From NCBI GenBank assembly GCA_039800325.1, contig JBDLQY010000047.1, positions 1 to 18,103 of the forward strand: DNA of 18,103 nt. The letters run 5' to 3'. The notes under the pieces are model-generated. The model saw nothing but the letters and a program-made list of their open reading frames with translations. It did not search any database and was not told the DNA's origin. This document shows, one piece after another, positions 1,185-17,614 of this stretch; position 1 is the first letter of the stretch; each line of letters starts with the position of its first letter. This DNA is from Pseudomonadota bacterium (GTDB taxonomy: Bacteria > Pseudomonadota > Gammaproteobacteria > Burkholderiales > Burkholderiaceae_E). Made by a program: the position numbers and the translations under genes.

Positions 1185-2222
1185 GTGAACATTCAAGAAG
1201 TCGCTCGCAAGATCGGCGTGTCCGTCGCCACAGTGTCCCGCGCGTTCAACACGCCGCAACAGGTCAAAACCGCTACTCGCGAAAAAGTACTTCGCATGGC
1301 AAAGGCACTGGGCTATCTCCCCAACGCTAGCGCGCGCACGCTACGCACTAGTCGCAGCCGGGTCCTGGGCGTACTGATGCCGACCCTGACCAATCCAGTC
1401 TTCGCCGAATGTCTAGAAGGCGTGGCCGAGGCAGCGCATGCAGCCGGCTACGCCATCCTCCCTATGACTACGCACTATGACGCGGCGCTGGAAACGCGTT
1501 GTGTCGCCCTGATGCAGGGCGCGAGCGTCGACGGTCTGCTGTTAGTGGTCTCCAACCCCAGCACGTCACAGGCGCTGCAGCAGTTGCAGCGCGCCCGTAT
1601 GCCTTATGTGCTGCTTTACAACCGCCACCCAAAACACCCCTGTGTCAGCGGCGACAGTGAAACGGCGGTCGCTGAGGTGGTGGCGCGGCTGGTAGCCCTG
1701 GGGCATCGACGCCTCACCATGGTCAGCGGGCCCATGAGTGCCTCGGACCGCGCGCAGCAGCGATACAAAGGATTCCTGCAGGGCCTCAAGCGCGCGCAGA
1801 TGAAGGGGCCGTGCCTGCTAGAGGTTCCCTTCATGGAATCGGCCATCGAAGCGGTTGTGGCCCACCTGAAGTCCGACAACAGACCGACCGCCCTAGTCTG
1901 CTCCAACGACCTACTTGCCCTGCGTTGCCTGCGCGCGGCACAACTTGCAGGTCTGCGCGTACCACAGGACATCAGCATTGTGGGCTTCGATGGCATCGCT
2001 CTGGGTCTGGACACCATGCCAATGCTCACCACCGTTGTGCAGCCCAATCATGAAGCTGGCCGCCTGGCCGTGCAGTGGCTAGTTCAGGCAATCGAGCGCC
2101 GTAAACGGCCGACGCCACGTGAGAGTGTGATGCTAGCCCACCAGTTTCGGGCTGGCGAATCGTGCGGACGGGCCCCAGCGGGCCGTCCATCCAGGTCCCG
2201 ACCCCGGGCCCGTCAACTGTGA
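1185..2222 (+). CDS. LacI/GalR-family transcriptional regulator
   Basis: GTG start. N-terminal HTH (NIQEVARKIGVSVATVSRAFN), then YLPNASARTLR and a periplasmic-binding-protein-like sugar-binding fold. The 345-aa length is typical of the family. Confidence 0.9.
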   Translation: MNIQEVARKIGVSVATVSRAFNTPQQVKTATREKVLRMAKALGYLPNASARTLRTSRSRVLGVLMPTLTNPVFAECLEGVAEAAHAAGYAILPMTTHYDAALETRCVALMQGASVDGLLLVVSNPSTSQALQQLQRARMPYVLLYNRHPKHPCVSGDSETAVAEVVARLVALGHRRLTMVSGPMSASDRAQQRYKGFLQGLKRAQMKGPCLLEVPFMESAIEAVVAHLKSDNRPTALVCSNDLLALRCLRAAQLAGLRVPQDISIVGFDGIALGLDTMPMLTTVVQPNHEAGRLAVQWLVQAIERRKRPTPRESVMLAHQFRAGESCGRAPAGRPSRSRPRARQL

Positions 2223-2233
2223 AGGAGTACTCC

Positions 2234-3244
2234 ATGTTCAAGCCTTTGAGAACCATCGCCCGGGCCGGATTGCTGGCCCTGGGCTTCGCTGCCACGGCAG
2301 CCGTAGCCCAAACCGCCATCTGCTACAACTGCCCACCCGAGTGGGCTGACTGGGGCTCTCAGCTGCGCGCCATCAAGGCCAAAACCGGTATTACCGTTCC
2401 GCCAGACAACAAGAACTCCGGCCAATCGCTGGCCCAGCTGGTTGCCGAGAAAGCCAGCCCCGTGGCCGATGTCACCTACCTGGGCGTCACCTTCGGCATT
2501 CAGGCCCGCAAGGAAGGCGTGGTCACCTCCTATAAGCCAGCCGCCTGGAATGACATCCCCAACGGCCTGAAGGACCCCGACGGCCACTGGTTCACCATCC
2601 ACTCTGGCACCCTGGGCTTCATGGTCAACGTAGATGCCCTCAAGGGCAAGCCGATCCCGCGATCCTGGGCCGACCTGCTCAAGCCCGAATACAAGGGCCT
2701 CGTTGGCTACTTGGATCCTGCGTCGGCCTTCGTGGGCTACGTGGGTGCGGTCGCCGTCAATCAGGCGCGCGGCGGAACGCTGGATAACTTCGGCCCCGGG
2801 ATCGACTACTTCAAGGCCCTGAAGAAGAACGACCCGATCGTGCCTAAGCAGACTTCGTATGCGCGGGTGCTCTCGGGCGAGATCGCGATCCTGCTCGATT
2901 ACGACTTCAACGCCTATCGCGCCAAGTACAAAGACAAGGCCAACGTCGAGTTCGTGATTCCGGCCGAAGGCACACTGGTCGTCCCCTACGTCATGAGCCT
3001 AGTGAATAAGGGGCCCAACGCCGACAACGGCCGTAAGGTGCTGGACTTCGTGCTGTCCGACGAGGGCCAGGCGATCTGGGCCAACGCCTACCTGCGCCCG
3101 GTACGCGCCAGCGCCATCCCGAAGGACGTGCAAGCACGTTTCCTCCCAGCCAGCGAGTACGCTCGCGCGCGCACCGTCGACTACGGAAAGATGGCCGAGG
3201 TGCAGAAGGCCTTCTCCGACCGCTATCTGAAGGAAGTCCAGTAA
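2234..3244 (+). CDS. ABC transporter periplasmic substrate-binding protein (family 1, PotD/AfuA/PhnS-like)
   Basis: RBS GAAGGAG (2221-2227) lies 6 nt before the ATG at 2234. Signal peptide MFKPLRTIARAGLLALGFAATAAVA-QT. I preferred this in-frame start to the ORF-track start at 2162. Confidence 0.9.
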   Translation: MFKPLRTIARAGLLALGFAATAAVAQTAICYNCPPEWADWGSQLRAIKAKTGITVPPDNKNSGQSLAQLVAEKASPVADVTYLGVTFGIQARKEGVVTSYKPAAWNDIPNGLKDPDGHWFTIHSGTLGFMVNVDALKGKPIPRSWADLLKPEYKGLVGYLDPASAFVGYVGAVAVNQARGGTLDNFGPGIDYFKALKKNDPIVPKQTSYARVLSGEIAILLDYDFNAYRAKYKDKANVEFVIPAEGTLVVPYVMSLVNKGPNADNGRKVLDFVLSDEGQAIWANAYLRPVRASAIPKDVQARFLPASEYARARTVDYGKMAEVQKAFSDRYLKEVQ

Positions 3245-3245
3245 G

Positions 3246-4097
3246 GTGAGCGGCGCATCGCCCGTGACTGCCCGCGCGGGCGATGCCGGCGCGGCGAAGG
3301 TCCGGTGGCAGCTGGCGTGCATAGCGCCGGCCGTCGCCTTCTTCGCTGCGTTCTGGCTGCTACCGATCGCGCGACTGATCGCCCTGCCCGCTGAAAAGGG
3401 CTGGCAGACCTACTTCGTCGTTCTGACCGAGGCCAAGTACCTTACCAGCCTGCTCAACACACTTCTGCTGTCGCTGGCTGTCACTGCCCTCACGCTGGTG
3501 CTGGGTGCCGCAGTCGGCATCTTCCTGGCGCGCACCCGGTTTATCGGGCGACGCGTGCTGATCTCGCTGCTCACGCTACCCCTCTCGTTTCCAGGCGTGA
3601 TCATCGGCTTCTTCGTCATCCTGCTCGGAGGGCGGCAAGGCGCGATCGCCACGCTGGCCGACTCGCTGGGCCTGGGCCGCTGGACTTTCGCCTACGGCCT
3701 GCTAGGCCTGTTCTTAGCCTACCTGTATTTTTCGCTGCCGCGTGCCATCGCCTCCTACGCAGCGGCCGCGGAAGCAATGGACCGCGCGCTCGAGGAAGCC
3801 GCGCGTTCGCTGGGCGCCTCGCGCTGGCACATCATCCGCGACGTGTGGCTGCCCGAACTCGCACCCACAACCCTGGCCTGCGGCGCCATCGTGTTCGCCA
3901 CCGCCATGGGTGCCTTCGGCACCGCCTTCACGCTGGCCAGCAAGTTCGAGGTGATTCCCATCACCATCTACAACGAATTCACCAACTACGCCAACTTCGC
4001 GCTTGCGGCCTCGCTGTCAATCACGCTGGGCCTGGTGACTTGGGCGGCTCTGGCCCTCGCCCGCCGCCTGGGCGGCACCACCGCACTGGGGGCCTGA
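3246..4097 (+). CDS. ABC transporter permease 1
   Basis: GTG start 1 nt after the upstream TAA. Multi-pass hydrophobic protein with an EAA loop (EEAARSLGASRWHIIRDVWLPELAP). Confidence 0.85.
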   Translation: MSGASPVTARAGDAGAAKVRWQLACIAPAVAFFAAFWLLPIARLIALPAEKGWQTYFVVLTEAKYLTSLLNTLLLSLAVTALTLVLGAAVGIFLARTRFIGRRVLISLLTLPLSFPGVIIGFFVILLGGRQGAIATLADSLGLGRWTFAYGLLGLFLAYLYFSLPRAIASYAAAAEAMDRALEEAARSLGASRWHIIRDVWLPELAPTTLACGAIVFATAMGAFGTAFTLASKFEVIPITIYNEFTNYANFALAASLSITLGLVTWAALALARRLGGTTALGA

Positions 4098-4099
4098 CT

Positions 4100-4906
4100 A
4101 TGTCCACCGCACACTCCCCTGCACGCGGAGCCCCCATCCTGCTGGGCCTGACCCTGCTAGTCGCCGTCTTCATGATCGGGCCAGTGCTGCTATCGGTCAG
4201 CGCCGGCCTCATGCAGAACTACAGCACCGGCTGGCGCAGTGGCTTCACACTTCGCTGGCTAGGAGAGGTCTGGGAGAACTACGGTTCGACCGTCATGGCC
4301 TCGATCCTGATCGCGACGGCGGCTGTCGTCGGGAACATCGTTCTGGGCGTGCCCTGCGCCTACGCGCTAGCCCGTTCGCGCCGGCGCTGGACAGCCTGGT
4401 TCGAGGAACTGATGACATTGCCCGTGGCGGTGCCGGGACTAGCCACCGCGCTGGCCCTGATCCTCGCCTACGGCCAATTGCGCGGATTCCGCCAGAGCTT
4501 CCTGTTCGTTCTGGTGGGGCACATGGTCTTCACCCTGCCCTTCATGGTGCGCACCGTAGCTGCAGCTTTTCGGCGCCACGAGTTGATCGCGCTCGAGGAG
4601 GCCGCCTCCACCCTGGGTGCGTCGTTCGCGCAGCGTTTCATGGGCGTACTGGTGCCAGCGGTCTTTCCGGCCATCGTCAGCGGCGCGCTGATGGTCTTCA
4701 CCCTGTCCATCGGCGAGTTCAACCTCACCTGGATGCTGCACACACCGCTCACCCGCACACTGCCCGTGGGCCTGGCCGACAGTTACGCATCGATGCGCAT
4801 AGAGATCGGCTCGGCCTACACCCTGGTCTTCCTCGTCGTCGTGCTGCCGCTGCTATGGCTGCTGCAACTCGCCGCATCCCTAGCCGAGAAGCGTTATGGA
4901 ACTTGA
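4100..4906 (+). CDS. ABC transporter permease 2
   Basis: ATG at 4100, 2 nt after the upstream TGA. Begins MSTAHSPARGAPILLGL and has an EAA loop (LEEAASTLGASFAQRFMGVLVPAVFP). The upstream in-frame extension to 3845 overlaps permease 1 and was rejected. Confidence 0.85.
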   Translation: MSTAHSPARGAPILLGLTLLVAVFMIGPVLLSVSAGLMQNYSTGWRSGFTLRWLGEVWENYGSTVMASILIATAAVVGNIVLGVPCAYALARSRRRWTAWFEELMTLPVAVPGLATALALILAYGQLRGFRQSFLFVLVGHMVFTLPFMVRTVAAAFRRHELIALEEAASTLGASFAQRFMGVLVPAVFPAIVSGALMVFTLSIGEFNLTWMLHTPLTRTLPVGLADSYASMRIEIGSAYTLVFLVVVLPLLWLLQLAASLAEKRYGT

Positions 4907-5942
4907 ACGCACCCCCATCACCATCCGCCAGTGCGCGAAGACCTACCCCGACGGCACGCGCGGCCTGCAGCCCACCGATCTGGACATCGAGCCGGGCGAG
5001 GTGCTAGCCTTGCTTGGCCCCTCGGGCTGCGGCAAGACCACCCTGCTGCGCATCGTGGCCGGTCTGGAGACGCCCGATGCGGGCGCGAGCATCCTGTTCG
5101 GCGATGACGACGTCACCCGCGTGCCGGTCGAACAGCGCGGGATCGGTATGGTCTTCCAGCACTACGCGCTGTTTCCACAGATGAACGTGGCGGCTAACAT
5201 CGGCTATGGCCTACGCATACGCGGTACTTCCGAGACCGAGGTGCGCCGCAGCGTAGGTGACCTCATCGAGCTGGTACGCCTGAAGGGGCTGGAGCACAAG
5301 CGCCCCGGCGAACTCTCGGGCGGCCAGCGACAGCGAGTAGCCCTGGCACGCGCGATCGCGGTGCGCCCGCGCGTACTGCTGCTAGACGAACCGCTGACCG
5401 CACTCGACGCCAAACTCAAGGAATCTCTGCGCGACGAACTGGCGGAGTTGCTGCGCCGTCTGCACATCACAGCTATCCACGTCACTCATGACCAGCAGGA
5501 GGCCATGTCCATCGCTGATCGCATGGCGGTCATGCAGTCGGGGCAGGTCATCCAGATCGGTACCGCAGAAGACCTCTATCGCTCGCCGCGCCATCACTTT
5601 GTTGCGAGCTTTCTGGGGCGGGTCAATGTAGTACGCCTCGTGCAGGATGACGGTGGCGCGACAGGCATCCGCCTGGGCGGGCTGTGGCTGCCCTGCGCAC
5701 CTCAAGATTCGCAAGACCACGTGCTGCTTCGCCCTGAGGACATCCAGGTCACGCCAGCGCCGGATAGTGCCGTGCGTGTGAGCCATCGCGTGTTCCTGGG
5801 TGATCGCACCCACCTGCGCGTGACCGCCCCAGAAGTCGGCGAACTGCTCGTGGACGTGGCACGCGACTGTCCCTTGCACGTGGGTGATCGTGTGGCCTTG
5901 AGTATCGACCCACACGTCCTCATGACCTGCGGAACCTCGTGA
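4896..5942 (+). CDS. ABC transporter ATP-binding protein (PotA/FbpC-like with C-terminal TOBE-like domain)
   Basis: Walker A GPSGCGKTT, signature LSGGQRQRV, Walker B LLLDEP, H-loop HVTHD. Overlaps the permease 2 stop by 11 nt. Confidence 0.95.
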   Translation: MELERTPITIRQCAKTYPDGTRGLQPTDLDIEPGEVLALLGPSGCGKTTLLRIVAGLETPDAGASILFGDDDVTRVPVEQRGIGMVFQHYALFPQMNVAANIGYGLRIRGTSETEVRRSVGDLIELVRLKGLEHKRPGELSGGQRQRVALARAIAVRPRVLLLDEPLTALDAKLKESLRDELAELLRRLHITAIHVTHDQQEAMSIADRMAVMQSGQVIQIGTAEDLYRSPRHHFVASFLGRVNVVRLVQDDGGATGIRLGGLWLPCAPQDSQDHVLLRPEDIQVTPAPDSAVRVSHRVFLGDRTHLRVTAPEVGELLVDVARDCPLHVGDRVALSIDPHVLMTCGTS

Positions 5943-6766
5943 TGAGCACCTTCCTTTATCAGGTCACCGACCTGCACATCCGCGAGCCCGGACGCAAAGC
6001 CTATGGCCGTCTGGACACCGCACCTTATCTGAAGCTGGCCGTCCAGACCATCGCGCGCTGCCCGCAACCGCCCACCGCAGTGGTGCTGACGGGCGACCTG
6101 ACTGACTTTGGGCGCACCGCGGAATACGAGCATCTCCGCGCCCTCTTGGACGGCCTGAACTGCCCCTATTACCTACTTGTCGGGAATCACGACGAAGCCG
6201 ATAACCTGCGCTCCGCCTTTTCGGAACATGCTTACCTGGGCCGCTCAGGACCCCTGCAGTACTCGGTACCTATTGGTGATCTGCAACTGATCGCACTAGA
6301 CACGACTGTCCGAGGACAAAGTCATGGCGCGCTTGACGCACATCGCCTGGACTGGCTGGCACGCGAGCTGGATTTGGTATCAGACCGGCCGGTTGTCATT
6401 GCCATGCACCACCCGCCTTTCACGACCCTCATCGGCCATATGGACAAGATCGGACTCCTGCAGGGGCGCGAGGAGCTCGAGCAGATCATCTCCCGGCATC
6501 CAAACATCGAGCGTGTTATCTGCGGTCACCTGCATCGGGCAATCGACGTGCGCTTTGGCGGCACGATCGCGTCGACCTCGCCAGCGCCGGCCCACCAAGT
6601 TGTACTCGATTTGCATCCCGAAGCAGTGTCCCAATGGAATCTGGAGCCCGGAGGGTTACGCGTCCATGCGTGGACGACGCATACCGGCCTAGTCACCCAT
6701 ACCCTGCCGGTAGGTGAATTTGAGGGGCCGTACCCGTTTCACGTGGGCGGCGTGCTGATAGACTGA
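5942..6766 (+). CDS. Metallophosphoesterase, GpdQ/CpdA-type phosphodiesterase
   Basis: Calcineurin-like motif set in order: DLH, GDLTDFG, GNHDE, MHHPP, GHLH. ATG at 5942 overlaps the ATPase stop (TGATG); GTG at 5939 is an alternative start. Confidence 0.85.
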   Translation: MSTFLYQVTDLHIREPGRKAYGRLDTAPYLKLAVQTIARCPQPPTAVVLTGDLTDFGRTAEYEHLRALLDGLNCPYYLLVGNHDEADNLRSAFSEHAYLGRSGPLQYSVPIGDLQLIALDTTVRGQSHGALDAHRLDWLARELDLVSDRPVVIAMHHPPFTTLIGHMDKIGLLQGREELEQIISRHPNIERVICGHLHRAIDVRFGGTIASTSPAPAHQVVLDLHPEAVSQWNLEPGGLRVHAWTTHTGLVTHTLPVGEFEGPYPFHVGGVLID

Positions 6767-6778
6767 TCGATCGCCCAA

Positions 6779-6791
6779 CAAAAGGGCTCGT
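6779..6791 (+). repeat. 13-bp direct repeat CAAAAGGGCTCGT, copy 1
   Basis: Exact copy of 16280-16292. It starts 13 nt after the phosphodiesterase stop, where GC content drops. Confidence refers to its being an att/junction repeat rather than chance. Confidence 0.35.
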
Positions 6792-7139
6792 GGTCATAGC
6801 ACCGAAGAAAATACCGGCTGCGCTGCCTGACGCGGTTGTGTCGAAGCAGCCGTCCAAATTTTCACTGTCATGCTTCGTACCGACAACTTCGGGCCTACAA
6901 CTACCTTGACGCCAACCCGCTTTGGCTGTGAGTCTTGTCTGTGGACATTCAACAGGCTTAGCAGGAACCGCGCCCGTGTTGGACTTTGGCGGGGCTTACA
7001 AGCCATTTTTGCTATGCCTGTCATCCCCGTCGCCGGCGGCGTGAAAAACATCCCACTCTTGAGCGAAAAACCGCGTTTTCTTGCTGATTTAAGCGATTTT
7101 TGTGGCAACGCCAGGAAACAGAAGCTGCGAAAAGTCTGC

Positions 7140-7640
7140 TCATGACGGCAGGTCCGCTACCTGGCCTGAAGCAGCGCCTTTAACCTGATGGGGCTTGCGC
7201 CCAGTGATGGGTTGTGCCCGCATCCTTGCCATGGCACTTGTCAGCCAAGCATCCTGCTCTGCCTGCGGGGGCTGCGTGAAGGGCTTAGGAGCTTGCCTGC
7301 GAGCAACCGACGGCAGGCCCGAACCGAGCTGTTGAGATGGCACTCTTTGCGCAGGCTTGGGCGCAGAGCGTTGTCTTGGCTGTTGCGGGGCCTTAGCGCG
7401 CTTTGCTGAACCACGCTTGGAAGACGGAGACGCGGGTGCTTTAGGGGTGCCCCTTGTAGTAGGGGTCACTTTCTTACGTGCAGCGCTGGCGACCACGGAA
7501 GGCGAAGCCCCGCTTGATGCTCCCACCGGTTGGGCAGCCGCGCCTGAGGTCCCCTTCGTCAGTGCAGCCCACACGTTGTCAGAGATGAGCTTCCACAGCG
7601 CCAGCTGGTCCTCTGCACTCACAAACTCGAAAAATCGCAT
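7140..7640 (-). CDS. Hypothetical protein: short structured N-terminus plus long basic P/A/S/Q-rich low-complexity tail
   Basis: Strong RBS AAGGAGG lies 6 nt upstream of the ATG at 7640 (MRFFEFVSAEDQLALWKL...). I chose this start over the ORF-track start at 7769, which would run through the upstream terminator. Confidence 0.55.
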   Translation of the reverse strand: MRFFEFVSAEDQLALWKLISDNVWAALTKGTSGAAAQPVGASSGASPSVVASAARKKVTPTTRGTPKAPASPSSKRGSAKRAKAPQQPRQRSAPKPAQRVPSQQLGSGLPSVARRQAPKPFTQPPQAEQDAWLTSAMARMRAQPITGRKPHQVKGAASGQVADLPS

Positions 7641-7676
7641 GATTGGCCTCCTTTTCTTATATTTATCGTCAGAGGG

Positions 7677-7702
7677 AAAAAACCGGCCTTTATTGGCCGG
7701 TC
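7677..7702 (-). terminator. Rho-independent terminator-like hairpin after the 157-aa gene
   Basis: The minus strand reads GACCGGCC-AATAAA-GGCCGG followed by TTTTTT. It lies 18 nt after the stop of the 7720-8193 gene. Confidence 0.55.
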
Positions 7703-7719
7703 CTGTGGGGAGGTTGAAT

Positions 7720-8193
7720 CTAGACGGAAGCGGACTTGCGCAGCGAGAGCGTCTCCCGCTTGAATCCACGCTTCACATATCCACTGAGTGTTTCGATCTG
7801 CGCGTCTAGATCGCCACGATCGACCGCTTGCATGACGACCTCCAACGTCGCTATGACTTCGTCAAGACCTTGCGCCTCGATCGCATTCTTGCCCTTCTGT
7901 AGTTCCAGGGTCTTCGCTCCGTACTTGATGCACAGGTACGTTTTCCCGTCGTCTCCCAGCCACCACCATGGCCTGACCCGCTTTGGCAGCTCAACTGTCC
8001 GCCTCGCTCCAGTCTCTTGGTCAGCGATCGTCTTGAATCGCATCGGAGCGAACGTTGTTCCTTCCTTGCGTGCCTTTGCGAACTGGATCTGCTCACCAAT
8101 CTTGCTCACAAGCTTTCGCCGACGATGAACTTTGGGATCTGCTGAGGGCTGCCGCTTGGTCGCGACCAACTTAAGGGCGCTGATTCCTGACAT
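7720..8193 (-). CDS. Hypothetical 157-aa protein (contains the RVRPWWWLGDDGKTY segment)
   Basis: RBS GAAGGAG lies 6 nt upstream of the ATG at 8193 (MSGISALKLVATKRQ...). No motif I can name with confidence. Confidence 0.6.
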   Translation of the reverse strand: MSGISALKLVATKRQPSADPKVHRRRKLVSKIGEQIQFAKARKEGTTFAPMRFKTIADQETGARRTVELPKRVRPWWWLGDDGKTYLCIKYGAKTLELQKGKNAIEAQGLDEVIATLEVVMQAVDRGDLDAQIETLSGYVKRGFKRETLSLRKSASV

Positions 8194-8301
8194 TGCTACT
8201 CCTTCATGTGTTGCAGGAATCAGCAATTTATTTTCGAGGGTTCCGATAGAGCAACCGAACTGCAATGACCCGCCGCATTGAACGGACTCTGAAACCGGCG
8301 A

Positions 8302-9882
8302 TCAATCCTTGGCTGTACCAGCGCCCGTCACACGACTTCTTGCAAGCGACTCCTCGTGCTTGATCCAGTCCGTGTGCTCGCGCTGCTGGCGTTCCTCATC
8401 AAGCGACCGTGGCGTGAACCTTTCCAGCCTCTTCGGAGCCAGATGCCAGTACGGGTTGCCTGTTTGCTCGCGCAGCGTTAGCTCGATGTGATGCTTGAGA
8501 TCTGCCCCTAATCGCTTCTTGAAGAAGATCGCGTCATGTACGTTCGCAATGGGACGATGCCCATGCTCCGCCGCTACGCGACGGACGATATCCATCGTGG
8601 ACGTTTCGTCATGCTGGTAAAGGTAGGCAAGTAGCTTCGCCTTGCTCACTCTCCCCGACTCTGTTTGCAGGATCGTGAGTTTTGCAAGATCTGGATAGGA
8701 CTGCATGAACTTCTCGAAGATGTACTGGTCGAGCATCTTCTGTTCAGCGATGAAGCCCTTTACCACTTCATCCGAAAGGAAGCGCTCTCGCTCGGCAGCG
8801 TTCCTCAGGATATCTACCAGAGCTGGATTGACCCAGTTACCAGACCCGTCAGTCCAGCCCTTACCTGCCGCACGTGCGCCGAAGCTGATGGCGGTGAAAG
8901 CTTGCTTCAGTAGCGGCAGCTGGAAGTCCTTCGGCACCGCGCTGTCTTCTTGAAACGTGAAGTAGCGAACCGTTCCCATGAAGTCCGCCTTGTCCTCCAG
9001 ATACAGCAAAGACATCGGAAAGTACGCCTTGACATCGGGTCGTATGCCCATGTCGATGAGCAGATTCCTCGCAAAGCCCATCTTCCACGCCACGACGCTG
9101 CTGCGAATGTCGTACTCCCAGCAGTTGCCAAGCATCGCCCTTCTCAGCTGTTTATGCACGCTCTGCACGCTCAAACCGTCGTAGTACATCCGGCCAAACG
9201 CGCTGGGGTTCTTGCGCTGGACGAAGTACCCGTTGTTGACGTCTGCAATGCTCAGAATCGTCATGGCCTGCTGGGCGAGATGCGTCCGCTGACTAGTGCT
9301 CAGCAAGCTTGCGCCGTCGGTGAGCCATAAGGCGAAGGCTTTAAGCGACTCTTTGTCTACTGGAACAAGGTCAAAGATCTCGGCAAGCTTGTCTGCGCGC
9401 CACTGCGTTGTGAATTCCGGGAAGAGGAACCTGAAGAGCGCAAGCCGGGACTGCTGATTTCCCAGAAGCGCGGCTTCCAGTGCTGCATCGGAGTCCGCAT
9501 GTGAGACAGACTGAGCGACGTCGGTAGAGACAGTCTGCAGCGAAGCAAGTGCACTTAGCTTTACCTGGGAGTTCTGCTTGGTGAACTTCGAGCCCGTGAC
9601 AACCTTCTCGACCAGAGACAGGTTGTTGTCTGATAGCCATTTGTGCAGGCGTATCTTGTCTGGGCCGATTTGTCCTCCCTTGTTCGCGAGCTGCTGAAGG
9701 GAGATGCTGTACAGGTCGAACTTTCGCTGCTCCGGGGTTTGCCCGTGCTGGATCGCAGCGTGAAGCATCTGCTCCAGGACAGCGATGTACTTGTCAAGTG
9801 CACGCTGCGCTGCGGCTTTGGGCTTGGGGAACGCAAGCGTCAAAGCGTGCAACACAACAGGGTCGGCGGATATCTTGATCAT
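8302..9882 (-). CDS. Divergent family-A (Pol I/T7-like) polymerase-domain protein, with no exonuclease domain recognised
   Basis: Long 526-aa ORF. Motifs recognised by eye: SAFGRMYY..LSVQSV (pre-A), WEYDIRSS (motif A, Asp258), KADFMGTVRYF, LLKQAFTAISFG (motif B, Lys326/Phe334-Gly335), FMQSYPDL, ANVHDAIFF (motif C, His449-Asp450). There is no clear SD before the ATG at 9882, so the start is uncertain. Confidence refers to the functional call; the ORF itself is very likely real. Confidence 0.6.
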   Translation of the reverse strand: MIKISADPVVLHALTLAFPKPKAAAQRALDKYIAVLEQMLHAAIQHGQTPEQRKFDLYSISLQQLANKGGQIGPDKIRLHKWLSDNNLSLVEKVVTGSKFTKQNSQVKLSALASLQTVSTDVAQSVSHADSDAALEAALLGNQQSRLALFRFLFPEFTTQWRADKLAEIFDLVPVDKESLKAFALWLTDGASLLSTSQRTHLAQQAMTILSIADVNNGYFVQRKNPSAFGRMYYDGLSVQSVHKQLRRAMLGNCWEYDIRSSVVAWKMGFARNLLIDMGIRPDVKAYFPMSLLYLEDKADFMGTVRYFTFQEDSAVPKDFQLPLLKQAFTAISFGARAAGKGWTDGSGNWVNPALVDILRNAAERERFLSDEVVKGFIAEQKMLDQYIFEKFMQSYPDLAKLTILQTESGRVSKAKLLAYLYQHDETSTMDIVRRVAAEHGHRPIANVHDAIFFKKRLGADLKHHIELTLREQTGNPYWHLAPKRLERFTPRSLDEERQQREHTDWIKHEESLARSRVTGAGTAKD

Positions 9883-10400
9883 GAGACTGCGACGCGAGCG
9901 ATTGCGTTCTCCTCCTCAAGGTATTTAGCGTCACAGATGATCAAGTCACGGCAGCGTGAAGACAAGAAAAAGTCACACGCATATAGTAATTTCTGACTTG
10001 GCGAAGACCTGAGGCCGCCACCCCACAAGGAAGCCGGCGCAGCCGGTCGATACCACCGATCCACTCCTCTGCTGACGCTTGCGTCTTGCCCTGTTGCAGC
10101 GCAGCGTTGCTCGTGGCGTAAGTGCCACGGATATGTAGCGCTGTGGCGCTTTCGCCATGCTGACCGGTTGAGCGTTCAGCTCTTGCGACACGCTTAAACG
10201 CCCTACAGCACGCGATCTCGCAGTTGGGCATGCTGCGGGTGCTGCCCTACCTGTTTACGCGTTGTAGGGCGCCTACGTTGCTTGCGGGCGTTGGGCACTC
10301 TTTCAGTGCATTCGCTCCAGGAAAATCTAACAAAAGTCGCAATTTCCATTGTTTCGCCGCGGTAGCGTTGAAATCATTGAGGAAATTTACTGGGCAAAAG

Positions 10401-10409
10401 TTATCCACA
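10401..10409. promoter_or_regulatory. Perfect consensus DnaA box TTATCCACA
   Basis: Exact 9-mer at the edge of an AT-rich tract (about 10320-10400) in the noncoding region between the polymerase-like gene and the recombinase. Confidence 0.4.
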
Positions 10410-10563
10410 GCCTATTCGTCCAGGACCTCGGCTTACCACCCAACACTTTGATTGAGACGGGCATCTGGAAGAGTCCTTTCGCGCTGCCCGCACTTTGGTT
10501 GCCCGCATAAATACGAGAAAACAAAATGGCTGGACAACACGCAACGCAAAGGAGATCGCGCAG

Positions 10564-11136
10564 ATGGCACAGGCAAGGACACTGAACGCAGCAGAGCTCG
10601 AACGGGTACTAGCGCACATTGCAACCAGCCGACACTCAGTGCGTAACAGAGCGATGCTGCTGCTGACGCATTTAGCGGGCTTGCGTATAGGGGAAGTGGC
10701 TGCGCTGCGATGGTGCGACGTGGTAAACCAGGACGGCAGCGTTAAAGACGAAATCCGCTTGCTGGCCACGATGACCAAGGGCGGTCATGCTCGTACAGTG
10801 TTTGTGAGCAAACGACTACGCGAAGAACTGCAGCGGTACGCTAGCAGCACCAAATGCGTGGAAAGCGGCTACCCGTTCTTCTACAGTCAGAAGTCGGTGC
10901 GGCGCGGATTCACGCCTAACAGCCTATCTCAGACCATGTCGCTTCTGTATGCCCAGGCTGGGCTGGAAGGAGCCACCAGTCACAGCGGACGACGCTCGTT
11001 TCTGACCAATCTCGCGAACAAAGGCACCGCCATACACCTGCTTAAGGCGCTAGCCGGGCATCGCAACATATCCACGACTGCTACGTACCTTTACAGCAGC
11101 CCTGCCCAGCTCAAAGCTGTTGTGGAGCTGGTTTGA
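10564..11136 (+). CDS. Tyrosine site-specific recombinase, catalytic domain only (about 190 aa, FimB/FimE-sized)
   Basis: Catalytic residues appear in order: R (AGLRIGEV), K (TKGGHARTV), HxxR (HSGRRSF), H (GHRNISTT), Y (ATYLY). There is no N-terminal SAM-like/arm-binding domain. AAGGAG lies about 9 nt upstream of the ATG at 10564; the ORF-track start at 10495 is the alternative. Confidence 0.85.
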   Translation: MAQARTLNAAELERVLAHIATSRHSVRNRAMLLLTHLAGLRIGEVAALRWCDVVNQDGSVKDEIRLLATMTKGGHARTVFVSKRLREELQRYASSTKCVESGYPFFYSQKSVRRGFTPNSLSQTMSLLYAQAGLEGATSHSGRRSFLTNLANKGTAIHLLKALAGHRNISTTATYLYSSPAQLKAVVELV

Positions 11137-11499
11137 CGCCTATGGTGCTGGCGGAAACGGAGTCATACGGGGCCAAACGCGCCGAATTCCAACAAGGTCC
11201 AGTAAAAGCTGGCTCAGGATGGACGGTAAATAGGTTGGTAGGATCGCTGCGCGCCGCCAGTAAATCCCTCCGGAAATCGTAGATATCCGGCCACCTAAGC
11301 TGGAGCTCATGAGGAGAGCCTGGTCACTCCGAAGAGGTCTACGCAATATTGCTACACGCTAGGCGGTCAACGGGCAGCCTACATGGTGCCACGCCCAAGT
11401 GGGGCGTACGGATGTAACGCTGTCATGAGCAACACTCAACACCCCGGGAGGTCTGGTGGCGCCGTTGGTGTGGGTATTGCGATAGTTATGTTGTGCACC

Positions 11500-11512
11500 G
11501 CCCACCAATTCC
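11500..11512 (+). repeat. 13-bp direct repeat GCCCACCAATTCC, copy 1
   Basis: Exact copy of 16235-16247. The flanks are also partly similar (9 of 15 nt upstream, then AACTAC and CCCCG downstream with indels). It lies 184 nt before the META gene ATG at 11696. Confidence 0.35.
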
Positions 11513-11695
11513 AAACTACAACTGCCCCGGTGCAAAACCGCATAGATGCTGGGCCTCGTCTGCTGACAGTCAAGAGACCGGCAGAGAAAAACGGGAGCAA
11601 AGAGACTCGGACGGCGAAAAAGGCGGCCTTTTGGCGCGGCCGTAGTCTTATGCTGTACCAGCAAGCACACCTGGCGATAAGATGCTGTTCCAACA

Positions 11696-12640
11696 ATGCA
11701 AAGCACCCGCAAGGAAGTCGCCAACGCGGCCATCACCGGAAGTACCTGCTGGCGCCGTACCCAGTGGATGTTCGCGTTGGCTCTCCTGAGTGGAGCCGGG
11801 CTAACCACCCCATCTTTGGCAGCGGAGTGGGCTTTAGATGACGTGCGCGGCGCACGTTATGGCGGCGTGGAAGGAATCCCCGGAGAGTTTCATCTGGTCC
11901 AAGGTAAATGGACTGGTCAACCTCTCGATCCTGGGGCAGCCAGCAAGCCCACCGTGATGCTGCTGGACGACACCCTGGCCACCGGAGAGGCGGCAGGTGG
12001 CGCGCACCCCGAAGCGGCGGTTGTGTTGGCGGCCTCCTTTGGTGGCTCTGGCGTGTTTCACTATCTGGCCGTGTTGGAGCGGCGCGACGGCCGTCCGGTC
12101 AGTCGCCAGACGTGGGCACTGGGCGACCGGGTGCAGATCAAGCAGGTGCAAATCCATGGTCAGCGTATCCTCGTGGACATGGTTCGAAGCGGCCCCGGCG
12201 ACCCGGCTTGCTGCCCAACGGAATGGGTGACGCTTGCTTACGCTGTGGGGCAAGACCGGTCGATGGCTGTAGGACAGCCACGCCCTGTTCAACTTGCGGA
12301 TATCGGCGGCCCGAACTGGGTCCTGCGCACTTGGGGCGATGGTGAACAGGCACAATTGAACTCGTCGATATCCCTGACCTTCAAGGACGCCGCTTTGCGC
12401 GGGCATGCTGGGTGTAACTCTTATGTGGCCGGTACACAGGCAGGCGCGACCGGCAGCGCGCTCGCCATGGCGCCTGCAGCAACCACCCGAAAGATGTGCG
12501 AGCCCGACGTGATGCGCTCAGAGAGTCGTTTCCTTGAGGCGCTTGCACGCGCCGCCCGGTGGCGATTTGATGGTGGGCGTCTGGCGCTCAGTGCGGATGA
12601 TGGTTCGCCATTACTGACGTTCAGCCGTGAACCACGATGA
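11696..12640 (+). CDS. Secreted META-domain (HslJ-like) protein with an unassigned N-terminal domain
   Basis: The C-terminal half fits the META pattern (WVLRTW...ISLTFKDAALRGHAGCNSY...TRKMCEPDVMRSESRFLEAL...GGRLALS...LLTF). The N-terminus has WRRTQWMFALALLSGAGLTTPSLAA, which is signal-like and possibly Tat-like (RR). An alternative start is ATG 11768. The stop overlaps the next start (ATGA). Confidence 0.75.
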   Translation: MQSTRKEVANAAITGSTCWRRTQWMFALALLSGAGLTTPSLAAEWALDDVRGARYGGVEGIPGEFHLVQGKWTGQPLDPGAASKPTVMLLDDTLATGEAAGGAHPEAAVVLAASFGGSGVFHYLAVLERRDGRPVSRQTWALGDRVQIKQVQIHGQRILVDMVRSGPGDPACCPTEWVTLAYAVGQDRSMAVGQPRPVQLADIGGPNWVLRTWGDGEQAQLNSSISLTFKDAALRGHAGCNSYVAGTQAGATGSALAMAPAATTRKMCEPDVMRSESRFLEALARAARWRFDGGRLALSADDGSPLLTFSREPR

Positions 12641-14730
12641 CTGATCATGCCTGGCTAATGGAGGCGGCTCGTCGGGTACGCCCGGCTGCGGTTCCAACCG
12701 AACCGATTGCGCTTGCAGATGATTTGCAGATGGCTTGGTCTCAGGTCGCGAGGGCGAGCGGCCTTACACCGCGCGAGCTGGCGGCAGCCGTTGCGCTGAC
12801 GAACGGGCTCGATGCTGTAGACCCTAAGCAGATTGATTTTTCTCAAGCCAGCCTCCTGCCCGAAAGGATGTGCCGCCAGCAAGGCCTGGTGCCGGTGTCG
12901 CACGACGAAGCTACGCTGGTCATTGCGGTCAGCGATCCGCGGCTGCCGCTCGAGCAGCTACAAGCGTTGCGCTTCTCGGCTCAGCGCTCGATTCGTCTTG
13001 CTGTCATGGCACCTGACGACATCGATACCGCGCAGCTGCGCTTGTTCTCTCAGGAACACCGCAGCAAATCCGTCGGCGACTTGCCCGAGGTGGACCTCCT
13101 GGCTGACGATGGGGTGAGGAATGTGCCACAAGCCGTCAGCCTAGCCAAGGCCATCTTCCGGGCTGCGCTCGATCTGAATGCGTCTGACGTGCATGCCCAT
13201 CCCTTTGTGGGTGGTGGGGCGATCCGCCTGCGAGTGGATGGCGTCATGCGGCGCGTGTCGACCATCAATGCCTCTACGCTTGAGGCGCTGGCGCGCTACC
13301 TGAAAGCGCAGGCGGGCCTGGACCCCAACCCGCTCAAGCCCCAAGACGGACGACTGCGCCTGAGATACGGACGCCGCATGATTGACGTGCGGCTGTCCAT
13401 TCTTCCGGCATATGACGGCGACCGCATCGTTTGCAGGCTGCTTGACCAAAGCCGGAATTTCTCTTTGCAGTCGAGCGGTTTTTCTACGGCCGAGCAGCAA
13501 ACCTTGCAACGCCTGGTGCTGCGTGACGCAGGCATGGTCCTGTTGACTGGCCCGACGGGCTCTGGCAAGACGAGCACCCTGTACGCGCTGCTTTCGGAAC
13601 TCAACACCGTCGATGTGAACATCATGACGATCGAGGACCCCGTGGAGTACGTGTTGCCAGGTATCTCGCAGATCCAGGCGAACGAAAAGCAGGGGCGTTC
13701 ATTCGCCGACACCTTGCGGTCCATCTTGAGGCAAGACCCGGACATCGTGCTGGTCGGTGAAATTCGCGATGGTGAAACCGCACGCGTTGCAGCGCAAGCC
13801 GCATTGACAGGCCACCTTGTGCTGTCGACCCTGCATACGAACGACGCCATGGGAACGATCCCGCGGCTTCTTAACCTTGATCTTGATCCTGCGATCCTTG
13901 CCGACGCCTTGCTTGGCGTTGTGTCCCAGCGCCTGGTGCGCAAACTCTGCGAGGCATGCCGCGTCGCGCCATCCGTTCCCTATCGTCCGGGCGAGGAAGA
14001 GTTTCATCGGCTCACGGGCAGCTATCCGCGCTACCGCGCGCAGGGATGCAAGCGTTGCGCCATGACAGGCTTCCGCGGCCGGCTCCCGATCGTTGAGATA
14101 TTCGAGACAACCCGCGAGCTTCGCCACGCGATCCAGACAGGCGAGCACAGCTTGCGCGCCTTGACTGCCGCAGTGGGCGGCAGACACCACCTCATGTCCA
14201 GAAGTGCGGAGGCCCGGATCCGGGCCGGGGAGACCACGCCAGCGGAAGCCCAGCGGGCGATGGGAATGGGGTTCTGGTACGAGCTCGCCGAGTCACACGG
14301 CGTCGACACCGGGACGCTGCGTGACGAGTTGGCCGAGGAGGTTCTCGCCGGCCGGCGCTTGAGGGTGCTGGTTGTGTCGACCGACCCCCTGCTTGCAGAC
14401 GAGGTGCGAAGCGCCGTGCCCTACCAGCTGGATTGCGCTGACAGCGTGGCCGCTGCGTCCGAGGCGCTGGATCAGCAACTTGGCGTGATGGCGGTTGTCA
14501 TCGACGCGCATTTGATCGAAGCGGCCGGCGGGCATGCCTTGCGGGAGTCATTGGAAACGATGGCAAATGCCAGTCCGTGGGCAGGCTTGCCACTGCTGCT
14601 TGTCCGTGCAACGGCTGCGCCGGATGACGAGCAACTCCTGCCGGAACGTATTCGTGTTCTGACAGCGCAGGAGTCAACGGCCGAGCCGATGCGGCAGGCA
14701 CTTCTTCAATTGATGGGGCATCACGTATGA
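12637..14730 (+). CDS. PilB/GspE-family type IV filament assembly ATPase with an extra C-terminal receiver-like domain
   Basis: T2SSE N-terminal domain, Walker A GPTGSGKTS, Walker B DIVLVGEIRD, His box GHLVLSTLHTNDA, tetracysteine CEAC...CKRC. About 125 additional C-terminal residues have a CheY-like beta-alpha pattern (RVLVVSTDP...VVIDAHL...LPLLLV). Confidence 0.9.
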   Translation: MTDHAWLMEAARRVRPAAVPTEPIALADDLQMAWSQVARASGLTPRELAAAVALTNGLDAVDPKQIDFSQASLLPERMCRQQGLVPVSHDEATLVIAVSDPRLPLEQLQALRFSAQRSIRLAVMAPDDIDTAQLRLFSQEHRSKSVGDLPEVDLLADDGVRNVPQAVSLAKAIFRAALDLNASDVHAHPFVGGGAIRLRVDGVMRRVSTINASTLEALARYLKAQAGLDPNPLKPQDGRLRLRYGRRMIDVRLSILPAYDGDRIVCRLLDQSRNFSLQSSGFSTAEQQTLQRLVLRDAGMVLLTGPTGSGKTSTLYALLSELNTVDVNIMTIEDPVEYVLPGISQIQANEKQGRSFADTLRSILRQDPDIVLVGEIRDGETARVAAQAALTGHLVLSTLHTNDAMGTIPRLLNLDLDPAILADALLGVVSQRLVRKLCEACRVAPSVPYRPGEEEFHRLTGSYPRYRAQGCKRCAMTGFRGRLPIVEIFETTRELRHAIQTGEHSLRALTAAVGGRHHLMSRSAEARIRAGETTPAEAQRAMGMGFWYELAESHGVDTGTLRDELAEEVLAGRRLRVLVVSTDPLLADEVRSAVPYQLDCADSVAAASEALDQQLGVMAVVIDAHLIEAAGGHALRESLETMANASPWAGLPLLLVRATAAPDDEQLLPERIRVLTAQESTAEPMRQALLQLMGHHV

Positions 14731-14759
14731 GTTGCGCCACACGATCAAAGGAAGACCGC

Positions 14760-15518
14760 ATGAAACATCGTACGTACGGCTTCACGCTGATCGAAATTCT
14801 GGTGGGTATCGCCATCGTTGCAGTGCTGGCGGCGCTGGCGATTCCGTCGTATCAGTCCTACGTTACGCGAAGCCGCATCGCCGAAGCGCTGACGGCTGCT
14901 GATGCCGCGAGAACTACCGTGCAAGAGGCCCTGACCGCGGGGCAGCCTGTGGCAGCCGATTTACTGGCTTCGTCTGGAAAGGCGGCCGACGCCGTTCATT
15001 CGGTCCGTTGGCAGACTGCACCCGCAGGCTCGCCCGCTGCAGGAGCGATCGTGGCCAGCATCAACATTCCTGGCCTGGGGAAGCGCGCAGCACTTGCACT
15101 GGAGTGGCGCGCGGATGGCGGGTGGCACTGCGTCAGTGCCGAGGGCTATGCTGCAGGTGAAAAGTGGGTCGAGCCAGCCTACTTGCCATCCAGCTGCAAG
15201 GATGCAAGCCAGCCGATGCCGCATGTGATGGCGCACAACTCGGCGCCTGACGCTCAGACACCGGGCAGTCGCCCGGCTTGTCAGCCGAATCAGGTCGAAT
15301 TCGGCGGGCGTTGCAATGACGTTTGCAATCCGGGATGGGTGCGGCGCGGCACACAGTGTGAGCTCGCGCCAACCACCCAGATGGCTCCGCCTCAGCCGTC
15401 GGCCCCCGCGCTCCCGCAGTGCAAGCCGCATCAGGTTCTGGTCGCGGCAAACCAGACTTGCGTGAATGTCTGCTCGGAAGGATGGCGCATCAACGGCAAC
15501 CGATGCGCGCAGCTATGA
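14760..15518 (+). CDS. Type IV pilin (class III signal MKHRTYG/FTLIE) with a roughly 100-aa C-terminal Cys-repeat extension
   Basis: RBS AAAGGAAG lies before the ATG at 14760. Has G/FTLIE with Glu+5, a hydrophobic alpha1-N, and a D-region disulfide pair (WHC...PSSC). At 252 aa it is much longer than typical major pilins. Confidence 0.9.
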   Translation: MKHRTYGFTLIEILVGIAIVAVLAALAIPSYQSYVTRSRIAEALTAADAARTTVQEALTAGQPVAADLLASSGKAADAVHSVRWQTAPAGSPAAGAIVASINIPGLGKRAALALEWRADGGWHCVSAEGYAAGEKWVEPAYLPSSCKDASQPMPHVMAHNSAPDAQTPGSRPACQPNQVEFGGRCNDVCNPGWVRRGTQCELAPTTQMAPPQPSAPALPQCKPHQVLVAANQTCVNVCSEGWRINGNRCAQL

Positions 15519-16042
15519 CTTCAGACCAAGGACCACAAAGGAACAGCGCGCCGGATGCGAGCGACAGCATCGCGAGGATTCGCAGTCTCGCCCACGAGCA
15601 CCCGCGAGAGCCCACTCAGCCGGCTACGAACCGCGCGGCCCATGGTTCGACGCACCCGCAAGCGGCGCGGCGCGGTCGCCTGCTCCCCAAGGCGTCGATC
15701 GTCGTCTTGTGTGGATGTGCGCTGGCGGCTCTGGGGGCGTATCACTTTTGGGGACAGCGGGCGCCACCACCGCTTTCGGAAAGTGTGCGCTCCGTCGGCA
15801 CAGCAATCGCCGAACATGTGCGCGCGCATGGAAGCTTGCCCGCTTCGCTCACCGAGTTGAATGCTTTCCCCAAGTCCGCGCAAGAACGCGATGCAGATGC
15901 ACTCAAGCAACCGCCTGGCGCCAGTCTTGAGTTCTTCTATTTCAAGATGCCGCCTAGCGACTTCACCCTCATTGGAAGGAATTCCGGTGAAACGTGGATC
16001 TATCAGCCCGGGCAGGCGGACCCTGTGCGCCGTCTACCTTGA
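15515..16042 (+). CDS. Hypothetical single-pass membrane protein, translationally coupled to the pilin
   Basis: The ATG at 15515 overlaps the pilin stop (ATGA). One TM segment (ASIVVLCGCALAALGAYHFW) follows a charged N-terminal region. No named motif. Confidence 0.55.
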   Translation: MTSDQGPQRNSAPDASDSIARIRSLAHEHPREPTQPATNRAAHGSTHPQAARRGRLLPKASIVVLCGCALAALGAYHFWGQRAPPPLSESVRSVGTAIAEHVRAHGSLPASLTELNAFPKSAQERDADALKQPPGASLEFFYFKMPPSDFTLIGRNSGETWIYQPGQADPVRRLP

Positions 16043-16067
16043 GCTTCGCAACTCGATTTGCGAAGCT
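16042..16067 (+). terminator. Operon-end hairpin (perfect 10-bp stem, no T tract)
   Basis: AGCTTCGCAA (16042-16051) / TTGCGAAGCT (16058-16067) with loop CTCGAT, starting at the last base of the stop codon. It is followed by GGCACC, so it is not a canonical intrinsic terminator. Confidence 0.4.
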
Positions 16068-16247: not shown

Positions 16248-16279
16248 GGTTTCGAACTACCCCCGAGAAGTTGGTGGCC

Positions 16280-17605: not shown

Positions 17606-17614
17606 GGTCTCACC

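Follow-up and report, generated by a model that had tools for sequence, protein, structure and literature searches.

The locus described here raises the question of what role is played by a small polymerase-like protein that bears no family name and is encoded on a lower-GC island among ordinary bacterial genes. The stretch analysed, hereafter the window, comprises 18,103 nucleotides (nt) of contig JBDLQY010000047.1 (assembly GCA_039800325.1, a member of the Burkholderiales). The gene in question, POL, is an ATG-start open reading frame (ORF) at positions 8302-9882 of the minus strand and encodes 526 amino acids (aa). A preliminary description, made from the sequence alone, had taken POL for an orphan polymerase of the family A type without exonuclease, and had considered both a replication module of a small integrative element and a defence or accessory system. 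Structure prediction, Foldseek searches, residue conservation and gene neighbourhoods were combined to answer the question. The reading that we prefer, with a rough probability of 0.58, takes POL for a nucleotidyl transferase of the family A fold that is catalytically competent, has no exonuclease and belongs in or next to the TV-Pol group. In this reading POL, a DUF6641 protein and a third protein with a Lys/Pro-rich tail together make up the module by which small integrative elements, and some temperate tailed phages, replicate.

Fold of POL

The AlphaFold2 model of POL, which was built with 30 homologues, had a mean predicted local distance difference test (pLDDT) score of 85.3. Foldseek comparison of this model with the PDB gave 42 matches at E<1e-3, all of which were family A DNA polymerases (best E=1.3e-6), including the Aquifex, Taq and apicoplast polymerases, the Klenow and Bacillus fragments, T7 DNA polymerase, Pol theta and phage Pol I. 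The resemblance to family A that had been proposed by eye was in this way recovered from the structure. The core of POL superposed on 1kfs with a root-mean-square deviation (rmsd) of 6.5 Å over 337 columns. The TM-scores against the PDB were only about 0.35 and the rmsd was large for most matches, and the low TM-scores are attributed to the extra N-terminal domain and to the differing orientation of the domains. The predicted structure of POL is that of a right-hand polymerase domain of family A.

In the model, an N-terminal α/β domain of approximately residues 1-170 is followed by a thumb of two antiparallel helices (H177-189 and H196-215) and by a β-hairpin at 219-235 (strands E219-226 and E232-235) that carries R231. 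The first palm strand (E254-259) carries D258, and a helical insertion at 262-401 forms the fingers with K326 and F334-G335. The long helix 414-439 holds Q423 and E426, the palm β-hairpin E446-454 holds H449 and D450, and the final strand lies at 481-486. The order of these elements is that of the minimal TV-Pol and family A core, as described by Iyer et al. (PMC2579912).

The N-terminal 215 residues contained no conserved acidic pair, and G97 was the sole invariant residue there among diverse members of the family. The lack of conserved acidic residues implies that POL has no exonuclease domain, as had been thought at first sight, and no Pfam or NCBIfam model of such a domain matched the protein.

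Comparison with the viral models of BFVD gave tighter matches than those in the PDB. The best two matches were uncharacterised proteins of uncultured tailed phages (E values of 1e-28 and 2e-20, 21-24% identity), and the next were replication proteins of virophages and giant viruses (4e-10 to 4e-8, rmsd of about 5 Å over about 340 columns). The named matches, the Zamilon “DNA replication protein” and the Qinghai Lake virophage “helicase/primase/polymerase”, outranked canonical phage Pol I. Proteins of that class from the Sputnik and OLV virophages bear an N-terminal TVpol domain (PMC3671162); the virophage matches of POL were assigned to this class by protein name alone.

Conserved residues of the active site

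Residue conservation was counted in 150 listed representatives of clusters at 50% identity, with the representatives covering each column as denominators. E426, H449 and D450 were each kept in all 127 representatives, and R231 in all 131. Q423 was found in 126/127, F334 and G335 in 133/134, and D258 and K326 each in 132/134, while R247 was kept in 131/135 and position 298 was Lys or Arg in 131/133. Both D258 and D450, the two residues proposed as catalytic, are located on predicted palm strands and were thus found to be conserved throughout the family. To judge from these sequences, the catalytic core of POL is under strong selection.

Profile alignment with hhalign was not significant overall (P 0.053 against five family A DNA polymerases and P 0.037 against four T7-like RNA polymerases), but it brought the same residues into register with those of known polymerases. 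FGR231 was aligned with TGR668 and Q423 with Q849 of Pol I; K326 with K758 (K631 of T7 RNA polymerase); F334-G335 with Y766-G767 (Y639-G640); and H449-D450 with H881-D882 (H811-D812). The register drawn by eye in the preliminary description therefore stood for GR, K, FG, Q and HD at P of about 0.05, whereas its motif A was not placed, since hhalign gave no alignment in the proposed register. Motif A is assigned to D258 from the first palm strand of the model and from conservation, and D258 would then be the counterpart of D705. POL so shares with Pol I and T7 DNA polymerase the fold of the polymerase domain and the counterparts of R668, D705, K758, G767, Q849, H881 and D882. The spacing of 124 residues between K326 and D450 equals that between K758 and D882, as verified on the E. 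coli polA sequence, and the ORF and the cited residues (D258, K326, F334-G335 and H449-D450-A451, with the D450 codon at 8533-8535) were all as first reported. POL differs from both DNA polymerases in having neither a 3'-5' nor a 5'-3' exonuclease domain.

Size and spread of the family

POL is no orphan. In a collection of clusters at 90% identity, 940 proteins matched it, most of them full-length at 54-63% identity, and all were unnamed or “hypothetical”. A POL profile run against 1.84 billion cluster representatives retrieved 752 clusters (50% identity) at E<1e-3, 301 of them at E<1e-30. The distant relatives aligned only from about residue 150 onwards, which marks the N-terminal domain as the variable part of the protein. 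No family model was found for this group: POL had no match in Pfam, PHROGs, NCBIfam, PADLOC or the PDB sequences, a Pfam scan of 35 diverse relatives gave no family either, and phmmer and hmmsearch on PDB sequences returned nothing relevant.

A scan of GTDB with one genome per species yielded 80 POL loci, with up to three diverged copies per genome. The hosts were mainly freshwater Burkholderiales (Limnohabitans, Polynucleobacter, Comamonadaceae and Oxalobacteraceae), and a few loci occurred in metagenome-assembled genomes labelled Methylococcales, Legionellaceae, Rhizobiales, Thiosymbion and Bacteroidetes.

Partner genes

Two genes of the same strand follow POL in the window. The first (7720-8193, minus strand) encodes a DUF6641 protein of 157 aa (Pfam PF20346, 1.2e-16; phrog_31551), a putative accessory subunit of POL, the start of which was taken from the homologue P0271; the mechanical ORF extends to 8265. 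The second (7140-7640, minus strand) encodes 166 aa and was defined by alignment, without a family match. Its product consists of a conserved N-terminal helix, MRFxEIxxxEDQLALWKLISDNVW, and a low-complexity tail rich in Lys, Pro and Ala, and by this composition it may be a polycationic DNA-binding protein. Both had been regarded as ORFans; the former belongs to a Pfam family and the latter is a conserved gene. Neither DUF6641 nor DUF6876, another family met at these loci, was mentioned in the literature searched.

The three genes also travel together elsewhere. In 49 of 60 loci DUF6641 came directly downstream of POL in the same orientation, at a median distance of 118 nt, and in 2 further loci it was divergent and upstream; the third gene came after DUF6641 in 29 of 51 loci. 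At the distant locus L012, DUF6641 was divergent to a POL homologue of 25% identity. In one protein of 650 aa (P0154) the two are naturally fused, with the C-terminus matching DUF6641 at 5.7e-13 in Pfam, and the reading frames of POL and DUF6641 overlap in four loci (L043, L044, L055 and L085; positions 9484-10152 in L055 and L085). The fusion and the overlapping frames are genetic evidence that both proteins act together. The AlphaFold2 model of DUF6641 (pLDDT 83.7) comprises one helix, five strands and two further helices.

The island, its recombinase and its cargo

Divergently from POL, a tyrosine recombinase is encoded at 10564-11136 on the plus strand (190 aa; ORF of 213 aa from 10495), which matched Pfam Phage_integrase at 7.7e-25 and phrog_216, so that the recombinase seen beside POL at the outset was correctly named. 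The catalytic residues R, H-x-x-R, H and Y are visible in it. Of 38 loci, 27 had a tyrosine recombinase of 190-203 aa upstream of POL and on the opposite strand; with the phage integrases described below, these recombinases bear out the idea that the module travels with integrases. In the window and at other loci (L003, L006, L026 and others) the recombinase is a catalytic domain alone, without a core-binding domain. It resembles FimB and FimE in size, and NCBIfam invertase models matched it at 2e-10. No serine recombinase was seen in the window or at the loci examined, where the recombinases were of the tyrosine type.

The maximal extent of the island is 6767-11695, between a Metallophos gene ending at 6766 and a META-domain gene starting at 11696, both of which belong to ordinary chromosomal neighbourhoods. 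The lower-GC block noted before is real but modest, with a GC content of about 0.56 over 7001-11500 against about 0.65 over 1501-6000 and 0.63 over 12001-15500. No tRNA gene was present at the island in the search made for it, and an Rfam scan of 6700-11800 detected no known RNA.

The usual order of the genes at related loci was recombinase (minus strand), DUF6876 (plus strand), 0.3-5 kb of variable cargo, POL, DUF6641 and the third gene, with the DUF6876 gene upstream of POL in 27 of 38 loci. The window represents a reduced version of this module, without DUF6876 or cargo. In a second architecture (L001, L029) the trio is followed downstream by a full-length integrase of 341 aa. Between the third gene and this integrase, L001 has a tandem repeat of 24 nt in about 7 or more copies (13156-13395), within a small minus-strand ORF whose sequence suggests a Gly/Pro-rich repeat protein.

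The contents of the slot between DUF6876 and POL changed from locus to locus (L026-L102), and in pairwise DNA comparison the homology between loci resumed about 220-400 nt upstream of POL. The cargo included ThiC; ChrA/ChrB with a metallo-β-lactamase-fold protein; DUF2130; a trypsin-like protease; a major facilitator superfamily (MFS) transporter; VWA with MerR; glutathione S-transferase (GST); a glutamine amidotransferase; a dCache sensor with H-NS; TIR with a caspase-like protease (L007); and a protein with a weak reverse-transcriptase match (L036). The trio is the constant backbone beside a variable cargo slot, as in genomic islands, and not a single defence system.

Some of these neighbours bear on the idea that the trio is itself an anti-phage defence or accessory system, which would make nucleic acid upon infection like retrons or the defence-associated reverse transcriptases (DRT). 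The TIR and caspase-like pair and the reverse-transcriptase match agree with it, as do AbiJ with an AAA/STAND protein (L014-L016) and a restriction-modification pair with RelA/SpoT (L012), and a sequence motif found upstream of POL, described below, recurs in intergenic DNA of three phage contigs and could permit phage-triggered expression. However, PADLOC models matched none of the four proteins, and the defence genes are variable cargo among ThiC, ChrA/ChrB, MFS and GST genes while the trio is constant. Phages themselves carry homologues beside an integrase, and several diverged copies per genome, accompanied by recombinases, are typical of the backbones of mobile elements. We regard a defence function as highly unlikely. 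Between the two possibilities named in the preliminary description, the replication module is favoured by the constancy of the trio, the change of its cargo, and the position of distant homologues between phage integrase and terminase.

Presence in phages

Close relatives of POL were absent from IMG/VR, and a distant clade of 25-30% identity was found there in 12 contigs of 5-48 kb. The two contigs scanned (L118 and L119) contained tape-measure, tail-fibre, large terminase or portal genes. In the 36-kb contig L119, the order was two integrases, DUF6641, POL, five small ORFs (one of them HNH), small terminase, large terminase and portal, with the stretch from integrase through DUF6641 to POL at 4412-9248; no further recognisable replication gene was present in this contig. 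POL thus occupies the place where temperate siphoviruses keep their replication module, and from this gene order the module appears to serve temperate phages too. To date, members of the family have been met only in uncultured phages and in chromosomal islands.

Proposed role in replication and comparison with known systems

The nearest described group is TV-Pol, defined by Iyer, Abhiman and Aravind in 2008, who predicted a primase-polymerase activity for the family and proposed that the TV-Pols linked to an integrase or resolvase replicate small “replicative transposons” (PMC2579912). POL was compared with the published description of TV-Pol and through structural matches. Both are minimal and nuclease-less, with a two-helix thumb, a hairpin bearing an invariant Arg, an RNA recognition motif (RRM) type palm with two Asp, and a Lys in the fingers. 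Both reside on small mobile elements, TV-Pol with a lambda-type integrase and POL with its tyrosine recombinase, in addition to phages. More generally, TV-Pols are described beside an integrase, resolvase or transposase or beside a D5-type helicase, and never joined to nuclease domains. Some TV-Pols, like POL, bear an additional domain at the N-terminus, and the best annotated BFVD matches of POL are virophage proteins of the TVpol-helicase type, so typed by their names. In contrast to TV-Pol, POL lacks the Arg of RxxxK and has not kept the conserved Asp of the fingers, its N-terminal domain is α/β in the model whereas that of TV-Pol is all-helical, and no D5-type helicase is found near it. 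Partner genes for DUF6641, DUF6876 and a Lys/Pro-tailed protein are not described for TV-Pols, and none of the TV-Pol literature found describes the POL-DUF6641 architecture. POL probably descends from the TV-Pol or family A stock.

The nearest studied enzyme is CCPol, from the SCCmec cassette chromosome of staphylococci, an A-family polymerase that was placed in TV-Pol by Iyer et al. and that extends primers with deoxynucleoside triphosphates (dNTPs) (PMC7581432). [quoted passage not shown] The preliminary description had recognised no named system here, and these two relatives amend it. The two systems have in common an A-family-type polymerase gene on an integrative element, a small gene of no recognisable family directly after it and a site-specific recombinase nearby, and the POL-DUF6641 fusion and frame overlap suggest a complex in this case too. 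They differ in that, by the Foldseek search on its model, DUF6641 is not an SSB of the oligonucleotide/oligosaccharide-binding (OB) fold; that the POL elements use a tyrosine recombinase and CCPol-MP a large serine recombinase; that the hosts of POL are Pseudomonadota and phages and those of CCPol-MP are Bacillota; and that CCPol can be recognised from its sequence as Pol I-like, while POL has no match to a DNA_pol_A profile. None of the features specific to the PolA-SSB primases, namely the OB-fold partner, the helicase and the serine recombinase, was found at the POL loci examined. The pipolins (piPolB) and casposons are likewise small integrative elements with their own primer-independent polymerase and a recombinase or integrase, but their polymerases are of family B, casposons integrate by Cas1, and neither has homology to POL.

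By analogy with CCPol-MP and TV-Pol, and given what is shown of the fold, of catalytic-residue conservation, of gene order and the POL-DUF6641 fusion, and of the occurrence in phages, the following course may be proposed. The element would first be excised by the tyrosine recombinase. POL, with DUF6641 bound as accessory protein, would then start DNA synthesis on the excised element or on the phage genome, probably independently of a primer as CCPol-MP does. POL would extend the strand, and the copy would be completed by POL or passed to host enzymes. From these lines of evidence we infer that POL polymerizes, primes and uses dNTPs, that it interacts with DUF6641, and that the element is excised and replicated.

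Several results weigh against this replication role. The deviations from DNA polymerases pointed out in the preliminary description held across the POL family: the steric-gate position 263 was Val (89), Ala (34) or Ser (7) and never Glu; the residue after HD was Ala, Gly, Cys or Ser and never Glu; the Tyr of motif B of Pol I is replaced by the invariant F334; and the position of R754, four residues before the Lys, was variable and without a dominant Arg, with Lys one residue further on (K-3) in 56 of 135 representatives. D732 and H734 of Pol I had no conserved counterpart, and D300 of POL was Asp in only 43 of 135 representatives. K298 and R247 are candidates for the residues that stand in for R754 and H734. 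POL therefore lacks E710, D732, H734, R754 and E883 of Pol I and has Phe in the place of Y766. With so deviant an active site, the substrate, the sugar specificity and the handling of the triphosphate cannot be read from known rules, and robust polymerisation is putative. Sequence-profile methods tied POL to no family, family A included: the alignment of the POL profile with the single sequences of PolA, T7 DNA polymerase and T7 RNA polymerase was not significant, nor was any match to the DNA_pol_A profile (PF00476), so that the relation to family A, although seen in the structure, was not recovered by profiles. 

On the side of the partner, Foldseek comparison of the DUF6641 model with the PDB gave nothing significant (best match prefoldin, E=0.18), and the possibility that DUF6641 is an OB-fold SSB was rejected as no OB-fold protein appeared among the matches listed. 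DUF6641 was also found beside a short recombinase without POL (L014-L016), which means that its role may not be confined to that of a polymerase subunit. No helicase was seen in the window or at the loci examined, so the POL operon differs in this respect from CCPol-MP and most TV-Pols, which have one. As for the element, repeat searches for att sites and island ends gave no convincing direct repeats; every contig with the flanking genes also had the island, and a metagenome scan for an empty site was likewise negative; no excised circle was found. A tblastn search with three versions of POL against 50,697 GenBank phages and 72,556 PLSDB plasmids gave no match.

The same deviations of the active site lend some weight to the view that POL is not a processive enzyme and acts instead as an origin-binding initiator, as a transferase of one or a few nucleotides (in protein priming or tailing), or as a cargo enzyme of repair or lesion bypass. 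The triphosphate-binding residues R754, H734 and D732 are without conserved counterparts, CCPol-MP has a terminal transferase activity (PMC7581432), and the variation of the N-terminal domain between clades parallels the variation of the motif upstream of POL, as would be expected of a site-specific DNA-binding initiator. UmuDC genes adjoin the module in L001 and L002. Nevertheless, over more than 130 diverged clusters there is essentially no change in the two metal-binding Asp, the Lys of the O helix, the Gln of the minor groove or the Arg of the hairpin, which suggests selection for templated synthesis; and between L001 and L029 the UmuDC-bearing flank is 99% identical while the module diverges, which places UmuDC outside the module. 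A non-processive function is considered unlikely.

A conserved motif upstream of POL

A non-coding motif of 23 nt, TTACTATATGCGTGTGACTTTTT, is located at 9967-9989 on the minus strand, where it is perfect and unique in the window and co-oriented with POL. Its consensus, TTACTATA[AT]G[CT]GTGTGACTTTTT, is located upstream of POL, about 85-95 nt from its start codon. With up to three mismatches, the motif was found in 80 of 89 POL loci, and 98 of its 100 copies were co-oriented with POL. It was retained at loci whose POL proteins share no more than about 40% identity (L096, L097) and in metagenome-assembled genomes of other host classes, and it was absent from DUF6641 loci without POL. In 17 loci there were 2-4 copies, within repeated units of 110-260 nt, which in some cases flank a cargo gene on either side (L065, L062, L041). 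Extra copies were located 18-140 nt upstream of other ORFs, and those of L095 face the divergent DUF6641 gene. The copies of one locus share a variant of the 3' half (L044, L062), and the distant POL clade of L012 has the variant ATACTATAAGCTGCACTACTTTT, with a differing 3' half. Some loci show a palindrome, GTGTGACTTT-N4-AAAGTCACAC, with the half-site GTGTGAC.

Three IMG/VR phage contigs have an exact 20-mer of the motif between genes, namely L108 (about 7251-7273, minus strand), L110 (663-685, plus strand) and L107 (4610-4632, plus strand). The copy of L110 is placed 17 nt ahead of the start codon of an ORF of 119 aa, which precedes two large ORFs that likely encode scaffold and capsid by position and sequence. 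Four of the seven IMG/VR matches of the motif were discounted as chance; these have a common flank, which in L109 falls inside a 687-aa ORF that looks by eye like a cellular cyclase.

A good -10 hexamer, TATAAG or TATATG, is part of the motif, and no conserved -35 element was visible near it across loci. A sigma-70 promoter search found its only consensus match on the opposite strand, not above shuffled controls. The motif could be a host promoter with operator, a site at which POL primes or has its origin, a site for recombining cargo, or a promoter that POL itself reads as an RNA polymerase.

The last of these possibilities amounts to a separate account of the protein, in which POL would be a minimal single-subunit RNA polymerase of about 520 aa, or a sequence-specific primase, that reads the 23-nt motif and transcribes the POL operon and some of the cargo. 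The frequency and orientation of the motif before POL, its persistence at about 40% identity and across host classes, the extra copies before other ORFs including the divergent DUF6641, the 3' half shared within a locus and altered in the distant clade, its absence where POL is absent and the lack of a visible -35 element all speak for it. The protein itself adds the missing steric-gate Glu and the HD followed by Ala, Ser, Gly or Cys, comparable to HDS of T7 RNA polymerase, within a shared ancestral fold; the hhalign score against the T7-like RNA polymerases (P 0.037) was no worse than that against DNA polymerases, with GR, K...YG, the helix before motif C and HD aligned, and a long, conserved and oriented DNA motif ahead of genes is a further likeness. 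On the other hand, the equivalent of Y639 of T7 RNA polymerase, the sensor of the 2'-OH, is an invariant Phe in POL, Q423 is DNA polymerase-like as the equivalent of Q849, and the Foldseek PDB matches listed (top 50) were DNA polymerases and contained no structure of T7 RNA polymerase. POL is about 350 residues shorter than the T7-like enzymes, no promoter-binding N-terminal domain or specificity loop could be identified in it, and it has no Pfam match to RNA_pol (PF00940). The sole TV-Pol studied strongly prefers dNTPs (PMC7581432). As to the DNA, the GTGTGAC palindrome of some loci suits a dimeric repressor better, the -10 hexamer means that host RNA polymerase may use the motif, copies within repeats of 110-260 nt that sometimes flank cargo also fit a recombination or origin site, and a promoter driven by POL itself requires another source of its first expression. 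Transcription or sequence-specific priming by POL from this motif appears improbable.

Significance of the family

POL represents a distinct and large clade of family-A-like polymerases of mobile elements, with partners of its own and a cis element that is likewise conserved. Its principle was foreseen in 2008 (PMC2579912) and one relative was characterised in 2020 (PMC7581432); the motif is new. With more than 750 clusters, this is a large unannotated polymerase family without a Pfam, NCBIfam or PHROG entry. Its members keep the catalytic Asp, the O-helix Lys and the minor-groove residues and dispense with residues thought essential for triphosphate and sugar recognition, and they thereby offer a natural test of the minimal family A active site. 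The theme of a polymerase with a small partner, for which one pair has been studied so far (CCPol-MP, in staphylococci), is extended by POL to Pseudomonadota and phages, with a partner of unrelated fold.

The module is also the mark of a family of small islands that carry cargo at a hotspot, in abundant, streamlined freshwater Burkholderiales (Limnohabitans, Polynucleobacter), and it is present in several cultured strains, among them Limnohabitans sp. Rim28, 15K, 2KL-51, Bal53 and G3-2. POL would make a useful tool if it primed with dNTPs or if its synthesis began at a defined sequence. Were it to prove a small RNA polymerase specific for promoters, it would have a bearing on the divergence of RNA and DNA polymerisation within one fold; motif-specific initiation at its own operon, at some cargo genes and at genes of a few phage contigs, with motif variants that would co-vary with the POL clade, would make it a second and much smaller lineage of promoter-specific polymerases of the family A type beside the T7 and mitochondrial RNA polymerases.

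Other features of the window

One perfect DnaA box, TTATCCACA, is present at 10401-10409 on the plus strand. The DnaA-box region mentioned in the preliminary description thus exists as a single box, but it is strain-specific and absent at the same position in other loci, and an origin defined by it was rejected. Two nested, perfect inverted repeats of 12 nt bracket the start codon of POL and the region upstream of it (9802-9813/10096-10107 and 9831-9842/10073-10084). A general promoter switch inverted by the FimB/E-sized recombinase was rejected as improbable as well, as these repeats are strain-specific and inverted repeats are not enriched near POL starts elsewhere.

Downstream of the island, positions 12637-15518 encode an MshE-type ATPase of type II secretion or type IV pili (697 aa) and a pilin-like gene, which form an ordinary chromosomal context and have no connection with the module. 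A second lower-GC stretch (0.52-0.57) is found at 16001-18103, with ORFs at 16216-16758, 16730-17605 and 17615-18103.

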